Origin: a virus | IMG/VR virus record: IMGVR_UViG_3300027977_000009 | DNA length: 64,000 bases | Strand: one strand, 5' to 3' | Shown here: positions 3,862-60,410 of the stretch, piece after piece | Numbering within the stretch: position 1 is the first letter of the stretch | Layout of the letters: every line of letters begins with the position of its first letter | Program-made: the position numbers and the translations under genes | Notes under the pieces: model-generated | Told to the model about the DNA's origin: nothing | What the model saw: only the letters and a program-made list of their open reading frames with translations | Databases searched by the model: none

Positions 3862-5448
3862 TCAATCTAGTACTTCCAAAATCGCATCGTCGCTATCTTC
3901 AACGACTTCTTCGATCTCTGGTTCCTCTTCTATAGTGAACAATTGACTGAACATCGTTTGTGCGTTGACGGTTTTCTTACCTGAGAAACCTTGACCAGCT
4001 TTAATCTGCTGCCAAAATGTATCATAATTGTCGATCATGTCAAGACTTTTTTGACGATCCTTCAGAGAAAAAATCTCATCAACAATGTCAGCAAATTTAA
4101 GGTGTCCGAGAGGATCCATAACCATCTTAGGTTTGACCCCAGTTTCATACCTGCGATTAGCTTCTTGAACAGCACTCATATGCTGGTAAACGTTGTGAGC
4201 CTGAATCAATGTATAACTCAATGTATCCCAACTAGTCTTGGTCTCTTTGCCATGCTGACCCAAGAATCCTTGTCCGCGATAGCAAATGTCTTTCACAGTT
4301 AATAGATCAGTTACCGGACTGTCAGTAAACAACATATGAATACCATCAGCTAATACACCGTCACTGAACTTGCGAGTATCTGTTGCATACTTCTTGTTTT
4401 CAGCAGTCTTCTCCATTGCATACGCCCATTTCTTATCATGCTCAAACGTATTGTTGTTGTAAGCAAGACCCTTAGCAGCCGCAAAGAACGGACTAGCACA
4501 GTCAAAGGTGATCTGTAGTTTAGGATTGTGATACTTACGTATTGCTTTCTGGATATCAGTAAACAATACCGCATATTCCATAATCGAAGTTCCAAGACAG
4601 TGAACTAAGTCCTGCTTACCTTCTTCAAGATAACCATCATGAATGATGCCAACAAGACGCTTGAGCATCAGGTGGATATCGATCTTGTTTTGGCCGCCGA
4701 ATGCCCAACCATTGAATGCACGATCTCCGTACACTGTTGTATCGCAGTACTTCTTCATCTCTTCATACCAAACGTCTGACTGAGTATGATTGCGACCCTG
4801 TAGAACGTTTAGAAACTTGCAACGACCGTCACGATTAGCAACAAAATACTCATTGTTGATATGGGTAGCGGTGATAGCATCTTGAATAGTTGCAATGCCA
4901 TGCATAGATATACCCGTACCCGGTATAGGCTTTTTAGTTACCGGGTCTTTTTTCTGAGTTTTTGGATCTTCAATGTGATAAGTCGTAAGAGACTGTGATG
5001 GAATATCAAGACACATGCCATAGTCAGCATTGTCGTCCATCCACTTAAGAACTTCTGTGCGCTTCTTCATCGCACGGGGACAGCTAGGGTTCTTCCAGTC
5101 AGCGGGCCACTGACACTTTAATATTTGAAACCCTCCCGAGTCTGCTAACATAAATGTGTTATTACGGTCTCTATTAACAACTAGATGTTCGTTGGGATTA
5201 GTTTTATAATTTACTAAATCAGCATGTCCTGCGCTGTATAGTACCCATTTATAACTAAAAATGCCATTTTTTTCGTCAAGAAAGTTTAGTCTATTAGTGT
5301 TTTTTAATCCACTCGGGACTCTTTCTGTTGGAAAATAGTTACCTTCTACTTCTTGTTTACCCAATCCGGATATAAAGAAACTACTCAGTGCAGGTAAGAA
5401 TAGGGCCCATTCTGGATCATGTGACGCCGAGAGATTAATTTGTTCCAA
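3862..5448 (-). CDS. tRNA-guanine transglycosylase-like protein, probable DpdA (DNA 7-deazaguanine inserting enzyme)
   Basis: TGT motifs in order: ADSGGFQ, CLDIP, NVLQG, GWAFGG, HCLG, TFDCASP; no CxCxxC Zn site. Confidence 0.75.
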   Translation of the reverse strand: MEQINLSASHDPEWALFLPALSSFFISGLGKQEVEGNYFPTERVPSGLKNTNRLNFLDEKNGIFSYKWVLYSAGHADLVNYKTNPNEHLVVNRDRNNTFMLADSGGFQILKCQWPADWKNPSCPRAMKKRTEVLKWMDDNADYGMCLDIPSQSLTTYHIEDPKTQKKDPVTKKPIPGTGISMHGIATIQDAITATHINNEYFVANRDGRCKFLNVLQGRNHTQSDVWYEEMKKYCDTTVYGDRAFNGWAFGGQNKIDIHLMLKRLVGIIHDGYLEEGKQDLVHCLGTSIMEYAVLFTDIQKAIRKYHNPKLQITFDCASPFFAAAKGLAYNNNTFEHDKKWAYAMEKTAENKKYATDTRKFSDGVLADGIHMLFTDSPVTDLLTVKDICYRGQGFLGQHGKETKTSWDTLSYTLIQAHNVYQHMSAVQEANRRYETGVKPKMVMDPLGHLKFADIVDEIFSLKDRQKSLDMIDNYDTFWQQIKAGQGFSGKKTVNAQTMFSQLFTIEEEPEIEEVVEDSDDAILEVLD

Positions 5449-5812
5449 ATTTCGGCTCTTCTCTAACTAAGATTTGTACCATCTTGATCTTGTCATCAAG
5501 ATTTTTTTTCTGTTCGATTAAGCCAGCGATAGTAGGATTGTGTTTTGCTAATCTATCAAGTTCAGTTTCTTCATGCATCTTTTTCTTAGCCCAATCAAGG
5601 ATATTCGCCGCTTCAGGAGTTAGACTCACACTAGTATGCCCTTGCACAATCGATATCCAAGATATACCATCGTATACTTCAAACCATTGAAAGTTAGTAT
5701 TCCATCGCACATTCCCCGCGCCCAAAGCACTCGACGAGTGAGTGAAGTAAGTTCCTCCCGGAGACCCCCCCTCGACCGTTATATATCTATTACCAACGAC
5801 GGTCTTGATCAT
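5435..5812 (-). CDS. hypothetical protein with C-terminal coiled coil
   Basis: ORF coupled to flanking genes. Confidence 0.65.
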   Translation of the reverse strand: MIKTVVGNRYITVEGGSPGGTYFTHSSSALGAGNVRWNTNFQWFEVYDGISWISIVQGHTSVSLTPEAANILDWAKKKMHEETELDRLAKHNPTIAGLIEQKKNLDDKIKMVQILVREEPKFGTN

Positions 5813-6543
5813 TACTTAGCCTGTGCGGGAAGATAATAGTGATACTTAGAGATTGGGTTATCAACCACAATCTGAGCAACACCCTGATCAGAAAAACTGA
5901 CGGTCTTGTCACCGGGAAGATCCATAATGGCAAGAAACACCTTCACGGGCCAATTCCAAGGCCGTGCAAGACTTCCAGAGACACCCGACTGAAATACAAA
6001 ATTGCCAGAGTGTGAAGACGGATCACCAAAGTACACAACTAAATTGTTGTTTTCTGTCTTAGTTTTGAAATGAAGGTCTTCACTGTGAACTGACGACTGC
6101 TTCTTAAGACGCTGGACACCAGCTATACTAGGATCGAACGAAACGTCCCAGCCTGCGCCATTGAATGTTACTTTCTTGATCTTGTCTTCGACCAATGTCT
6201 TTGACATCAGCCGATAGTCATTAACGAAATCACCCGTTTTCGTTTCGAAGTGAATACTTGCAGGAGCTTGTGGATCTTCCTTAGTTCCTCGCCCCACGTT
6301 GATAGTAGAAGTGTCGTCGTAGTCATCGAACGACAAGATAGTCCTCAACTTCGACAAATTAGGCATGCCGAAGGTACCAATAAATTCTGCGATCGGGGCC
6401 TTAAACGTGCCGTTAACAATAACAGTCTTGTCGTCTGATACCGCAGAAACTAATGTTTCTGTATCAGTACCGACAATCTTTACGAGATCAACAACACCCA
6501 GACCATGAGTGTGTTGGATCAAATCAAGCAGATAATCCTTCAT
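5812..6543 (-). CDS. DNA polymerase sliding clamp (gp45-like)
   Basis: 243 aa from MKDYLL (AAGGA SD); clamp-like size and pattern, C-terminal YYLPAQ; next to polB; clamp loader present in window. Confidence 0.65.
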   Translation of the reverse strand: MKDYLLDLIQHTHGLGVVDLVKIVGTDTETLVSAVSDDKTVIVNGTFKAPIAEFIGTFGMPNLSKLRTILSFDDYDDTSTINVGRGTKEDPQAPASIHFETKTGDFVNDYRLMSKTLVEDKIKKVTFNGAGWDVSFDPSIAGVQRLKKQSSVHSEDLHFKTKTENNNLVVYFGDPSSHSGNFVFQSGVSGSLARPWNWPVKVFLAIMDLPGDKTVSFSDQGVAQIVVDNPISKYHYYLPAQAK

Positions 6544-6619: not shown

Positions 6620-7603
6620 TTAACCGAAACTGAACAGATCACTGAATGTACTGTTAGTGTTAGTATCTGTTCTGATATCCCAGTCAAGTACACCTAATAG
6701 GTTATCGATTTTCTCATCGACTAGCTTACGTTCCATTTCATTATCATCAAAAGGAAGTTCAAGGAACCATTGTGGTAGCCTAAGCTCATCAGTTGGATAT
6801 GCAATCGAAGTCAACCCTAATGGATTTGATTTGAGAGTACACACAACAACCTTCATACCATCTACGATCTTCTGACTATACTGGTCACCGTTCATCTTAC
6901 GCAAGTAGTTATAATTGATAGCAGCTTTCGCATGTCCAACACTACACTGACCGGTCTTCTCATACTTGATCGTATGTTTAGTAAGATTGTTAACTGACTT
7001 AGGAGAACCTTTAGTCCAACTATCTTGTTCAGAAAGCCAAGTCTTGAATTCTCTGATCTTAGTGATAACTTCGGCGCGAGGAACGCCACCCAATACCTGC
7101 TCAAGTACTTCCATCAAGAACGTCTGAACATACTTAGGAGTATCTGCTCGTTTCAAGTCAAGACCCATAGCCTTGATCTCACCCATCTTACCATTCACAT
7201 CTTTACGCTTGCCTTCTTTATCAAAGATATTGATTGCATAACGCTTCTTTGTGATGAATAGAGTACGATCCCCGATCAGTTCACGACCAGCTTTGATGAT
7301 CTCACCGTTCTTGCGGGGACAATGAAATGCCTTCTCCATGAAGCCTGGAAAACTATCGTTTGCGATATCAGCAATATTATCGTATAATTGGATGCATACT
7401 TCCTTGTTCCATTCAATCTCACCCTTATCGATCTGTGGTTTGATCGCGTGATATGCACTGAAATAACAGCTATCAGTGTTATGAACTAGGATATCATTTG
7501 CAAAGAAAAACGGATCACTATCTACAATACTCAAGTCGTATACATAGTCATCAACTTCACCAAGACATTCTACCTTTTTTATTTTTGTCCACTCTGCATC
7601 CAT
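6620..7603 (-). CDS. polB: DNA polymerase B C-terminal half preceded by 42-aa C-intein (7478-7603)
   Basis: VYDLSI...FFANDILVHN|TDSCYF, then KKRYA, KAMGLDLKRADTP. Confidence 0.93.
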   Translation of the reverse strand: MDAEWTKIKKVECLGEVDDYVYDLSIVDSDPFFFANDILVHNTDSCYFSAYHAIKPQIDKGEIEWNKEVCIQLYDNIADIANDSFPGFMEKAFHCPRKNGEIIKAGRELIGDRTLFITKKRYAINIFDKEGKRKDVNGKMGEIKAMGLDLKRADTPKYVQTFLMEVLEQVLGGVPRAEVITKIREFKTWLSEQDSWTKGSPKSVNNLTKHTIKYEKTGQCSVGHAKAAINYNYLRKMNGDQYSQKIVDGMKVVVCTLKSNPLGLTSIAYPTDELRLPQWFLELPFDDNEMERKLVDEKIDNLLGVLDWDIRTDTNTNSTFSDLFSFG

Positions 7604-8541
7604 GCTTTCACCTTATTAATTGTATTTTGTTTATCTAATTTAAATTCAGATTCCCACACCGTATACGTGCGAAACCCAAGATCAGTTGCTGTCTTCAATT
7701 TTTTACTATCATATTCTTGAATCTCTAATGCAGTACGACCCCGAATAACTGCATCATTTTTATATAAAGACGGATTCGCATGCCAGTAATCACCGTTAAA
7801 TTCAATTATACAGTCTTTGTGTTTTATATCGTATATCACATATGTTCCTAAGAAAGAAGACCATCTTCCGTAGGGTCTAGTAAACGTAGTATACTCTAAT
7901 GATCCATAATTGTCAATCAGCATGGTCGTAAATTCTTTTTCTATGTTGGAACCCCAAATATTACCGGGATATACTACCCGGTTTAAAATTAGTGTGACCG
8001 CTTCATCAAGGGATATTCCCAATTTAGTTGCTACTAATTGCGGATTAAATGAGCTACCTTTTTCGATATTTAACTGTAGAAATCTAGACGTACCCTCTTC
8101 AGTTCCATACTTGTTAACGAAATAGGTTTTACTATTGGTGTATGCTTGTCGTTCACAATACGCTAGCCACTTAGTAGTACCTAACTTTTCCCCATGACGG
8201 GCAATCATTTTTTCTAAGGTCTGTGCCCTAGACGAATTATACTCATTATACTGTTCAACTGTCCATCCGTGTTTTTTACGTTTGTACTCAAATGAATTAG
8301 AATCCGCTTGTTTAACTTTGTATTGGTTCCATCGAATCGTACCCTCTTCTATCCCATACTTTTCAATCAATCTCTCTTTTGTAATAGCCGTTTTTGCGGC
8401 AACATCCGCTGATACTAACACGGCTTGAGGATATGCCAACTTGTATTCTTTGGAATTAGAAAATTTACCTGTGCAGTTATACTTAAAATGAGTCCACTGT
8501 AGTCTACTAGTTTCCATTCCACATTCTAAACACTTTATCAT
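7579..8541 (-). mobile_element. Free-standing Vsr-like/DUF559 homing endonuclease between polB halves
   Basis: N-terminal CxxC..H..C finger, three KYGxEEG-type repeats, C-terminal YD..IIEFNGDYWHANP..VWESE. Confidence 0.8.
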
Positions 8542-8571
8542 ATGCTGATACTCCTATCAGCATATATTTAT
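8539..8571 (-). promoter_or_regulatory. Late promoter TAAATA overlapping an 11-bp hairpin that encloses SD and ATG of the endonuclease
   Basis: ATATGCTGATA-GGAG-TATCAGCATAT perfect stem (8540-8565); TAAATA at 8565-8570. Confidence 0.85.
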
Positions 8572-8574
8572 GCG

Positions 8575-16767: not shown

Positions 16768-17208
16768 TTATGCCCTTGCAGTCTTTAGGATACTTCTAAG
16801 CATCCATACTTTTTTAGAATATAAGTCTTGTAAATCCGCCATGTAGTTAGCTATCCCTTGCTCTCGGGTTTCAGTAGCAACGTCAAATATAGTTTTCACT
16901 AATTCAACCATATCAGATGAATCACTCAACAATTCTTCAAACATCAAAGCCGCTCGCGGTATTTTATGTTGTTCCCGTACTATACTAAGTTCCAATAGGC
17001 GAGACAGGTTACCTGGAGTATAGGAATCTAGTGAGCGTATATGCTCACCCACCGTGTCGATTGATTCATATACCTCTGAATAGAATGAGCCTAGAAACTC
17101 ATGGTATTGTGGGAAATCACTACCTTCAACATTGAAATGGAAACCGTGTATCTTAGTGTACAAGACAAACGTGCTTCCTAACAATGTTTTTAAGTCATCT
17201 ACTAACAT
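16768..17208 (-). CDS. dps: Dps ferritin-like DNA protection protein
   Basis: HGFHFNVEGSDFPQYHEFL..Y..D.VGEHIR, WML. Confidence 0.9.
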   Translation of the reverse strand: MLVDDLKTLLGSTFVLYTKIHGFHFNVEGSDFPQYHEFLGSFYSEVYESIDTVGEHIRSLDSYTPGNLSRLLELSIVREQHKIPRAALMFEELLSDSSDMVELVKTIFDVATETREQGIANYMADLQDLYSKKVWMLRSILKTARA

Positions 17209-17242
17209 TACTTTATCCTTATGTAGTATTTATCATTATGGC

Positions 17243-17314
17243 ATAAATATAGATGTAGTTCGCGGATCTAGGCAATCCCAACTACTCTAATGCTATAGAG
17301 GAGCATCAGCTATG
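17243..17314 (+). promoter_or_regulatory. Late promoter plus conserved structured leader (copy 1)
   Basis: near-identical to 59063-59135; stem-loop with compensatory changes. Confidence 0.85.
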
Positions 17315-17917
17315 TGTATTTATTGTGGTACTCAGTACCATCGCTTAATTTATGAGAATCATTTTGGACCTATTCCTTTTGATGAAGAGGATAGAAGTTA
17401 CGAAATACACCACATTGACGGTAACCATAATAATAACTCGCTTGAAAACTTACAATGTGTCTCTATTAAAGAGCATTATCAAATCCATTTGAATCAAGGT
17501 GATCTTAAAGCCTGCCTTATAATGTCTAAAAGAATGAGTTTGTCCCCGAAAGAGAAATCTAGGTTAGCTAAGATATCAAACGCCGGGCCACGCAATCCCT
17601 CATTCGGTACTATATGGATAACAGACGGGGCAACTAATAAGAAGATACAACAAGATGATTCTATACCGATTGGTTGGATCAAAGGCCGGTCCTTTAACAC
17701 CGACTTTGCTGACAAATTTACTAAAAGAAGTAAGGTGGGTAAAAATAATCCCAGATATAACCACACACAGTATCATTTTAGAAATACAGGAACAGGTGAA
17801 GAAGTCACCCTTACCCCCGGTGAATTTTCACTTGCGTACGGAATCAACATTAAGAAAGTGCGCTGTCTGTTTCGCAAAAAGTTAGATTCAATTAAAGATT
17901 GGATTATTATTTTCTAA
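17312..17917 (+). mobile_element. HNH homing endonuclease
   Basis: EIHHIDGNHNNNSLENLQCVS..EH; WITDG..GW.KGR and NPRY DNA-binding modules; opposite strand to neighbours. Confidence 0.88.
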
Positions 17918-59062: not shown

Positions 59063-59135
59063 ATAAATAAAGATGTAGTTCGCGGGAGTACGAATCCCCA
59101 ACTACTCTAATGCTATAGAAGGAAACATCAGCATG
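59063..59135 (+). promoter_or_regulatory. Late promoter plus conserved structured leader (copy 2)
   Basis: near-identical to 17243-17314. Confidence 0.85.
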
Positions 59136-59975
59136 ACTATTTATTATGTGTACGCATACCTACGCAAAAGTGACAACACCCCTTACTATATAGGAAAAGG
59201 CAAAGATAAACGAGCATATGATCCGAATCATGCTGTTCCTGTTCCCAAAGATAAATCCAAAATCATATTCCTTGAACGAAACTTAACCGAACTCGGAGCA
59301 TTGGCTATTGAACGCAGAATGATTCGTTGGTATGGTAGAAAAGATATAGGAACCGGTATACTTCGTAACCGAACTGACGGTGGCGAGGGTACATCCGGAC
59401 GAATCAACAACTATGGTTTATTAGGAGATAAAAACCCTAGTTATGATCAAAAAGTGTACACCTTTTATCATGTCAACGGTAAGATTGAAGAATCTACCCA
59501 GTACGATTTTCGGATCAAATATAAATTAAACGGGGGAAATCTCAGTGAAGTTATTCACGGCAAACAACCGTCAGTAAAAGGATGGAGGATTACACCTGAA
59601 ACACAGCATAATGCTTTAGGAATGAACCACCCGAGCTTTCATAAAGTACACACGTTTTACCACGAATCCGGCGTTGAAGAAACTTGCGGAAAACTAGAGT
59701 TATCTAATCAATATGGATTATCCCTTAAAGTAATCAGTAGTCTTATACGCGGTGATATAAAGACATGTTGTGGATGGCGAATGAGCAGAAATACCTCAGT
59801 ACATGGTAAGGTGGACACCGCATTGTATAATTTTGTACATACTGATGGTACTGAAAAGCACTGCACAAAGAAAGAACTAATAGATTCATTTGACATCCCT
59901 AGAAGTACATTAAATGCGGTAATAAGAGGTGAACGCGGGTACGTTTCAGCAAAGGGTTGGAAAGTCGTTAACTAA
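59133..59975 (+). mobile_element. GIY-YIG homing endonuclease with three C-terminal DNA-binding repeats
   Basis: YYVYAY..PYYIGKG..RAY, E..MI..YGR, LRN.TDGGEG; repeats Y.F.H..G..E..KGW. Confidence 0.88.
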
Positions 59976-60029
59976 CCCTATAATATGAAAATATTAACTT
60001 TGGGCAATTTGGTGTAAATATACTTTAGC

Positions 60030-60410
60030 ATGAACGCAAACGATTTTTTTAAGAAACTAAACGAAAATTACCCGTTTATAACGGTCTGTTCCTATGCCCA
60101 ACAAGACTATGTTGGCATCATTCAGAATCGAGATTATGTGGTCACTACTATGTATGACTATGGTTCGTTAGCTCTCCCTGAACTAAGAACGAAATTCTTA
60201 GAATTGGGTGAAGTTTGGTGGTGGGAATCAAATAGAACGATCCCCATCAACATATTCTTGAAAGATGAATGGGCTATCTTTAAACCTTATATTCGTACTT
60301 TTAACAACAAGAGTTTAGATATCGTCTATGGCCCAGTCGTTAGTATGACAGATTTCACGAAAAAACGAGCGAAACGCAAAAGCGTTATGTTCATTAAACG
60401 GATGCCTTAA
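60030..60410 (+). CDS. hypothetical protein
   Basis: late promoter TAAATA at ~60015; WWWESNR motif. Confidence 0.7.
   Translation: MNANDFFKKLNENYPFITVCSYAQQDYVGIIQNRDYVVTTMYDYGSLALPELRTKFLELGEVWWWESNRTIPINIFLKDEWAIFKPYIRTFNNKSLDIVYGPVVSMTDFTKKRAKRKSVMFIKRMP

Follow-up and report, generated by a model that had tools for sequence, protein, structure and literature searches.

We found that two homing endonuclease genes in a 64-kb stretch of DNA from a large uncultured phage (IMG/VR record IMGVR_UViG_3300027977_000009; the whole stretch, 64,000 nucleotides long, is hereafter the window) each begin with a copy of the same short cassette, and that this cassette recurs in front of several kinds of nuclease genes in uncultured phages. 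Judged on its sequence features, the cassette is probably a portable regulatory unit in which facing late promoters would give, besides the mRNA, a 65–80-nt cis-antisense RNA lying over the endonuclease’s whole 5′ untranslated region (UTR) and ribosome site. The fold of the cassette’s helices is selected on the antisense strand, and the facing promoter-like box, which sits within the first codons of the endonuclease gene, is under nucleotide-level selection.

The window holds exactly two occurrences of the cassette’s 22-nt core, compared with none in 100 shuffles, and a covariance model of the family (see below) identified two cassette sites only, at 94 and 92 bits; the two copies reported in the preliminary description of this DNA are thus present as described. 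Both are on the (+) strand, at 17243–17323 and 59063–59144, and both continue past the ATG into codons 2–4. Copy 1 leads into an HNH_3 (I-HmuI-like) homing endonuclease gene (17312–17917, +) oriented opposite to both of its neighbours, and copy 2 into a GIY-YIG-like homing endonuclease gene (59133–59975, +) with a weak NUMOD-like match; the other genes of the window are almost all on the (−) strand. The first copy had been drawn as starting at 17227, but this position falls in the native promoter box (17227–17234, −) of the neighbouring ferritin/Dps-like gene (16768–17208, −), which adjoins the cassette without being part of it. The cassette proper starts at 17243 with a sense late-type promoter box, ATAAATA (17243–17249, +), a motif that is also found 25–45 nt upstream of approximately 20 native genes in the window. 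This box is followed by a hairpin, P1 (17255–17285), by a second helix, P2 (17287–17309), and, in codons 2–4 of the HNH gene, by a promoter-like box facing the first (17317–17323, −). The corresponding parts of copy 2 are the sense late-type box at 59063–59069 (+), P1 at 59075–59105, P2 at 59107–59131 and the facing box in codons 2–4 at 59138–59144 (−). In P1 of copy 1, an outer stem of 6 bp is separated from an inner stem of 4 bp, which is closed by a 7-nt loop, by two single-base bulges with one G-C pair between them. Seven of the 11 bases of the hairpin top differ between the copies, including bases of the loop and two compensatory pairs in register, which bears out the compensatory changes first noted in the inner stem, and only one of the 46 flanking bases differs.

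Two further features of the window were recorded. The leader of the ORF at 7579–8541 could form a perfect 8-bp hairpin (8541–8572, −) with GGAG in its loop, 3′ of a native promoter box; this hairpin ends in ATCAGCA-type bases, like the arm of the cassette that precedes the ATG. Downstream of the GIY-YIG-like gene is a 126-aa ORF (60012–60410, +) assigned to PHROG 11637 (function unknown), which has its own variant promoter box approximately 11 nt before its ATG and no evident Shine-Dalgarno (SD) sequence.

The cassette proved to belong to a large family. A hairpin-anchored pattern gave at least 120 matches in IMG/VR, as did a second pattern whose anchor was confined to the ribosome site and the start (at least 120). 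Among the matches listed for the second pattern were 135 distinct copies, only 37 of which had the window’s outer stem; three matches (L179, L185 and L221) were chance matches of this anchor, with no cassette in the DNA upstream, and nearly all of the remaining copies had the same architecture with a different yet complementary outer stem. A covariance model built from 89 copies identified 118 sites in 100 loci, and this search of phage metagenomes, combined with tabulation of the downstream genes, revealed both covariation and association with endonucleases, as the preliminary description had anticipated. A single genome may carry many copies: there are 13 in a 360-kb phage record, complete and with terminal repeats, 8 in a 259-kb record and 5 in a 139-kb record. 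The family occurs hundreds of times in lake phages, all uncultured, and there was no copy in 50,697 GenBank phages, where megablast with both loci returned nothing and blastn with two cassette copies returned only chance hits. In prokaryote genomes, 7 of 23 pattern matches were true copies, and because all of these are on contigs of metagenome-assembled genomes (MAGs), mostly short, they point to no reliable host. Two of the true copies (L328 and L343) are on longer contigs, of 148 and 43 kb, from a Haliscomenobacter sp. MAG; their presence on contigs assigned to Bacteroidota may be either a host hint or a binning artefact. Neither the whole window searched against Rfam 15 at the gathering score (no hits) nor a permissive search of positions 17150–17400 at E ≤ 10 (just two chance snoRNA matches, 11–13 bits) connected the cassette to a described family, in agreement with the earlier remark that it was not recognised as one.

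Some copies are incomplete or precede damaged genes. At L003:698–804 and L115:2785–2892 the promoter, P1 and linker are intact and unrelated sequence takes the place of the SD, the start codon and the facing box; these truncated cassettes may be remnants left after loss of the endonuclease gene. At another locus (L319, G003:C1:89100–90407), the cassette is still intact in front of a GIY-YIG-like gene with a stop after 30 codons.

The ORFs behind the cassettes are mostly GIY-YIG-like, and the other kinds found are HNH_3 proteins, classical HNH proteins with NUMOD3 and an I-TevI-type DNA-binding domain, TnsA/Vsr-like PD-(D/E)xK nucleases, and zinc-finger proteins. The cassette is shared by at least four nuclease superfamilies, and the notion that it travels with interchangeable nuclease domains, formed on the two window copies, holds for the family. 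The gene behind copy 1 had been called HNH, and it matches Pfam HNH_3 (PF13392) at 49.7 bits against a cut-off of 24.8, as well as a PHROG annotated ‘intron-like DNA endonuclease’. For the gene behind copy 2, the earlier GIY-YIG assignment finds support in a GIY-YIG-like motif pattern that is conserved in relatives and in the best, weak fold matches (E 0.09–0.9) of a low-confidence protein model (pLDDT 56), which are to the GIY-YIG domains of UvrC and of a 5hmC-specific restriction endonuclease (PD-T4-3); the assignment finds none in Pfam, where there was no GIY-YIG hit, or in sequence searches of the PDB, which gave no hit even with a profile of the GIY-YIG-like domain.

We examined the helices in a covariation alignment of 105 distinct rows derived from the covariance model. 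In P1, all 11 pairs are changed on both sides, 95% of cells are paired, and the covariation score was reached by none of 500 shuffles; sliding the helix partners by 1–3 columns lowered pairing from 91% to 26–41%. The bulges of P1 are invariant. P2 is shorter, and its three central pairs covary modestly; its outer three pairs are unproven, because they are invariant in alignments that were anchored on those very bases. The original view of a conserved, covarying structured element is therefore upheld by covariation in every P1 pair. Its outer stem had been described as invariant, which is true of the two window copies and not of the family, across which this stem covaries fully, and an alternative GATG/CATC fold is not conserved, since the spacer usually differs between family members.

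We next considered the promoter boxes. The sense box lies 68–70 nt before the ATG in both window copies and in the family, and in 77 of 88 family members it is followed by a 5-nt spacer and then the first G of P1; P1 and P2 are wholly downstream of it, in line with the original placement of the structure 3′ of a late-type promoter. The second, facing box had been overlooked. Counted in an 89-copy set whose anchor excluded it, the reverse complement of the late-promoter motif follows closely on the start codon in 84 copies, and in 74 of these 84 it lies 5 nt from a conserved CAGC. Both strands are consequently arranged in the same way, with a box, 5 nt and then a G, the antisense G being the base just before the start codon. 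Because the start codon ends 0, 1 or 2 nt before the facing box, the box is read in three frames. Codon choice in proteins with M-x-I-Y starts also reflects the box: isoleucine at codon 3 is encoded by ATT in 59 of 60 cases, compared with 41% of Ile codons elsewhere (p = 4e-22), and tyrosine at codon 4 by TAT in 55 of 62, compared with 67% (p = 8e-5). The variants at the seventh position of the facing box are those of the sense promoters, and there is no covariation with the sense box, which argues that the facing box is a second promoter and not a pairing partner. It is retained whichever way the neighbouring genes point (92/94 and 66/71). Homologues of T4 gp55, the late sigma factor, are present in cassette-bearing records. 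One locus (L154:3592–9538) has three cassettes within 6 kb and, among them, a gp55-like late sigma gene (5390–5821). In T4, a late promoter consists of a TATA box of 8 bp located roughly one turn of the helix upstream of the start site (PMC2988020).

The strand on which the fold is maintained could be read from the pairs that depart from Watson-Crick geometry. Written for the sense strand, helix cells of this kind comprise 125 A·C and 10 G·U, and all 10 G·U are at the loop-closing pair. As a sense A·C is an antisense G·U, this means that the helices have stayed intact on the antisense strand, whereas breaks have been tolerated on the sense strand. Fold energies of the identical segments agree, with a mean of −17.4 kcal/mol for antisense and −13.0 kcal/mol for sense; the antisense fold is better by 4.4 on average, and it is the better one in 96 of 104 copies (Wilcoxon p = 5e-18). 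P2 reaches 8 pairs only on the antisense strand, where one G·U is invariant in the alignment and the loop is the complement of the SD. Its sense counterpart is a weaker helix that touches the last SD bases, has A·C mismatches in most copies and is left with only 3 contiguous pairs in most. Copy 2 on its own displays the asymmetry, for two G·U among its 8 (−) strand pairs are two A·C mismatches on the (+) strand. The preliminary description had treated the linker and the bases before the ATG as single-stranded; they are conserved because they are the two arms of the antisense P2 helix.

These data bear on the reading of the cassette as a sense leader, in which a 5′-terminal P1 would protect the mRNA from 5′-end-dependent decay, P2 would tune access to the SD, and the (+) strand fold alone would matter. 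The spacing from promoter to P1, from which the mRNA is predicted to begin with the first base of P1, and the location of the SD in or beside P2 are what such a leader should have. The majority of helix cells are Watson-Crick, so that the sense RNA folds as well and may have a part to play. We nevertheless think a sense leader unlikely: it leaves the 125 A·C against 10 G·U cells, the weaker sense fold in 96 of 104 copies and the reduction of sense P2 to 3 contiguous pairs in most copies without a reason, and it does not explain a box in the codons that is independent of reading frame. Of the cis-regulatory leader first proposed, then, the structured and covarying element stands, and the strand does not, the selected structure being the antisense fold.

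We propose instead that the cassette encodes an antisense RNA. The late-type box would fire into the gene, with the mRNA starting at about the first base of P1, and the identical facing box in codons 2–4 would start an antisense transcript five bases on, at the G before the start codon (predicted at approximately 17310–17311 in copy 1 and at 59132 in copy 2). The antisense RNA would pass through the region where ribosomes bind and form a pair of adjoining hairpins, first P2′, presenting the anti-SD in its loop, and then P1′, with one base between them, before ending at a U-rich tail 3′ of P1′. Box, fold and tail together predict an RNA of about 65–70 nt from copy 1 (17243–17311, −) and its equivalent from copy 2 (59063–59132, −); across the family, the product would be approximately 65–80 nt long and fully complementary to the endonuclease 5′ UTR. 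Pairing with the mRNA would probably begin loop to loop, and it would keep ribosomes from binding, make the duplex a target for a double-strand RNase, or do both. The expected outcome is that a potentially harmful nuclease is kept low, independently of the copy number of the phage genome. That both boxes fire, that transcription terminates at P1′ and that the gene is repressed is what we infer from the sequence.

After P1′, the antisense tail of this putative RNA has a mean of 6.7 U in 12 nt, being the sense promoter and its A-rich spacer reversed (in copy 1 the box at 17243–17249, read on the (−) strand, is part of it). With its 11–12 pairs and bulges, P1′ followed by this tail looks like an intrinsic terminator. 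A simple terminator scan flagged P1′ in neither window copy. Termination could be weak, for the foot of the P1′ stem is rich in A/U and the U run begins only after two bases other than U. The U-rich tail is also no independent proof of a terminator, as an A/T-rich spacer is expected of late promoters anyway.

A hairpin of this kind could act without any regulatory RNA, as a bottom-strand insulator in which P1′ and the U-rich tail terminate backward transcription, whether read through from a neighbour or started at the facing box, before it reaches the neighbour’s promoter, and any short RNA made is non-regulatory. This would account for the strand asymmetry as well as the tail, and the genomic setting is suited to it: of 124 cassettes, 54 point against both neighbours and 23 the same way as both, many are located beside sigma-70-like early promoters of divergent genes, and cassettes in the window, L228 and L288 adjoin a neighbour’s promoter. 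What an insulator does not explain is why a promoter-like box just upstream of the terminator should be kept in both orientation classes, or why an 8-bp P2′ with an anti-SD loop should be conserved together with invariant bulges, and we consider insulation as the sole function improbable. The orientation data fit a self-contained unit, one that would both restrain its own gene and halt backward transcription ahead of the neighbour’s promoter.

The site upstream of the ferritin/Dps-like gene illustrates how the cassette moves with its gene. It is empty in L226 (3960–4001), occupied by the HNH_3 cassette in the window (17208–17242) and by GIY-YIG cassettes in L228 (3960–4001) and L288 (3940–4001), each of the three cassettes adjoining the native promoter. 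A site that is empty in one relative and that holds three different endonuclease cassettes elsewhere is therefore an insertion hot spot, and the presence of different nuclease cassettes at one site, each abutting the native promoter, indicates that cassette and gene form a mobile, interchangeable unit with the cassette at its 5′ end. In another reading the element works as DNA: bottom-strand hairpins in single-stranded DNA would serve as a site of recombination or priming, or would mark one end of a mobile unit that has 7-bp inverted repeats on either side. The G·U/A·C asymmetry would fit a fold of bottom-strand single-stranded DNA equally well, since DNA hairpins also tolerate G·T pairs; inverted 7-mers do bracket the cassette, and the same cassette occupies one site with different nuclease genes. 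Yet the inverted 7-mers are the phage’s own promoter motif, each with promoter-like spacing to a G, the HNH, GIY-YIG and PD-(D/E)xK families have no common known hairpin-binding domain, and neither a target-site duplication nor a second end was seen, all of which makes a DNA-level element very unlikely.

Control of endonuclease genes by late promoters has precedents in T-even phages, in which the late promoters of I-TevI, I-TevII, I-TevIII, segB and Aeh1 mobE are located inside sense hairpins that sequester the ribosome-binding site (RBS) (PMC2988022). The cassette resembles these in having a late promoter directly upstream, RNA structure at the ribosome site and an apparent limit on nuclease expression. 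It differs in that the T-even promoter is in the 5′ arm of a hairpin formed in sense read-through RNA, whereas here the promoter is outside both helices and the fold is that of the opposite strand. The starts of the T4 homing endonuclease genes mobB, mobC and I-TevII are without the cassette. A mask of the T-even type, in which the transcribed promoter box of read-through RNA would pair with the facing box to block initiation and transcripts from the cassette’s own promoter, lacking that 5′ arm, would be translated, draws on this established principle and on the perfect complementarity of the two 7-mers in most copies, but we regard it as highly improbable, given that a matching facing-box variant is absent from all 8 copies in which the sense box carries a C or G variant, that the pairing would consist of just 6–7 A-U pairs across approximately 75 nt, and that sense read-through should be rare where most cassettes face against their neighbours, so that retention of the facing box in both orientation classes argues against any mask that depends on it.

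A related description comes from ocean metagenomes, in which Dassa et al. (2009) reported that free-standing endonucleases of the GIY-YIG and Vsr-like kinds are preceded by hairpins that have a TATAAATA box (PMC2677866). The authors interpreted them as RBS-sequestering sense hairpins and proposed neither an antisense RNA nor a strand analysis (PMC2677866). Compared by description, those hairpins and the cassette have in common unrelated endonuclease families, a 5′ hairpin, a T4-type late-promoter box, two conserved motifs complementary to each other and an origin in uncultured phage DNA.

The arrangement we propose would work like that of IS10/Tn10, in which the antisense RNA-OUT controls the transposase mRNA, RNA-IN. 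Like that system, the cassette has facing promoters, here at the level of motifs, at the 5′ end of a mobile element’s nuclease-type gene; a short, stably folded antisense RNA, here predicted, complementary to the 5′ end and ribosome site of the mRNA; and copy-number-independent restraint as the expected effect. The cassette has no sequence or model similarity to it in the Rfam search, and its gene is a phage homing endonuclease and not a transposase. The overlap in the cassette would span the whole 5′ UTR of approximately 68 nt, with the antisense promoter within the first codons and the antisense tail overlapping the sense promoter, and both promoters are phage late-type boxes. Phages also encode small antisense RNAs, such as P22 sar and lambda OOP, which act in cis, finish in a hairpin and repress an overlapping gene. 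Those are single-copy regulators of lysis–lysogeny genes, whereas the cassette is multi-copy and portable, sits on selfish nuclease genes and has no Rfam match. Nothing relevant came up when full texts were searched for antisense RNA in combination with homing endonucleases, and the cassette itself was described in neither Rfam nor the literature searched.

The hypervariable tops of P1 invite a further suggestion. They could be a specificity module that makes the first loop-loop contact with the cognate mRNA, giving up to 13 partly orthogonal regulators per genome, while the conserved P2 cross-represses endonucleases of co-infecting phage. In the genome with 13 copies, 12 of the 13 tops differ, but the family-wide pool of P1 tops is just as diverse, so diversity within a genome is uninformative on specificity, and we hold this suggestion to be a long shot. 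If it were true, selfish nuclease genes would be using RNA to compete with one another or as a form of immunity.

To our knowledge, no selfish genes are more common in large phages than homing endonucleases, and we know of control of their expression only from a few T-even examples, all via sense-strand hairpins. If the cassette, of which one genome can hold up to 13 copies, works as we propose, it would represent both a new level of control over these genes and a new and abundant phage RNA family. Its design would be compact and dual-use, with a promoter that is also a terminator tail and first codons that are also a promoter. The cassette also offers a simple metagenome marker for free-standing endonuclease genes and for the hot spots at which they insert.
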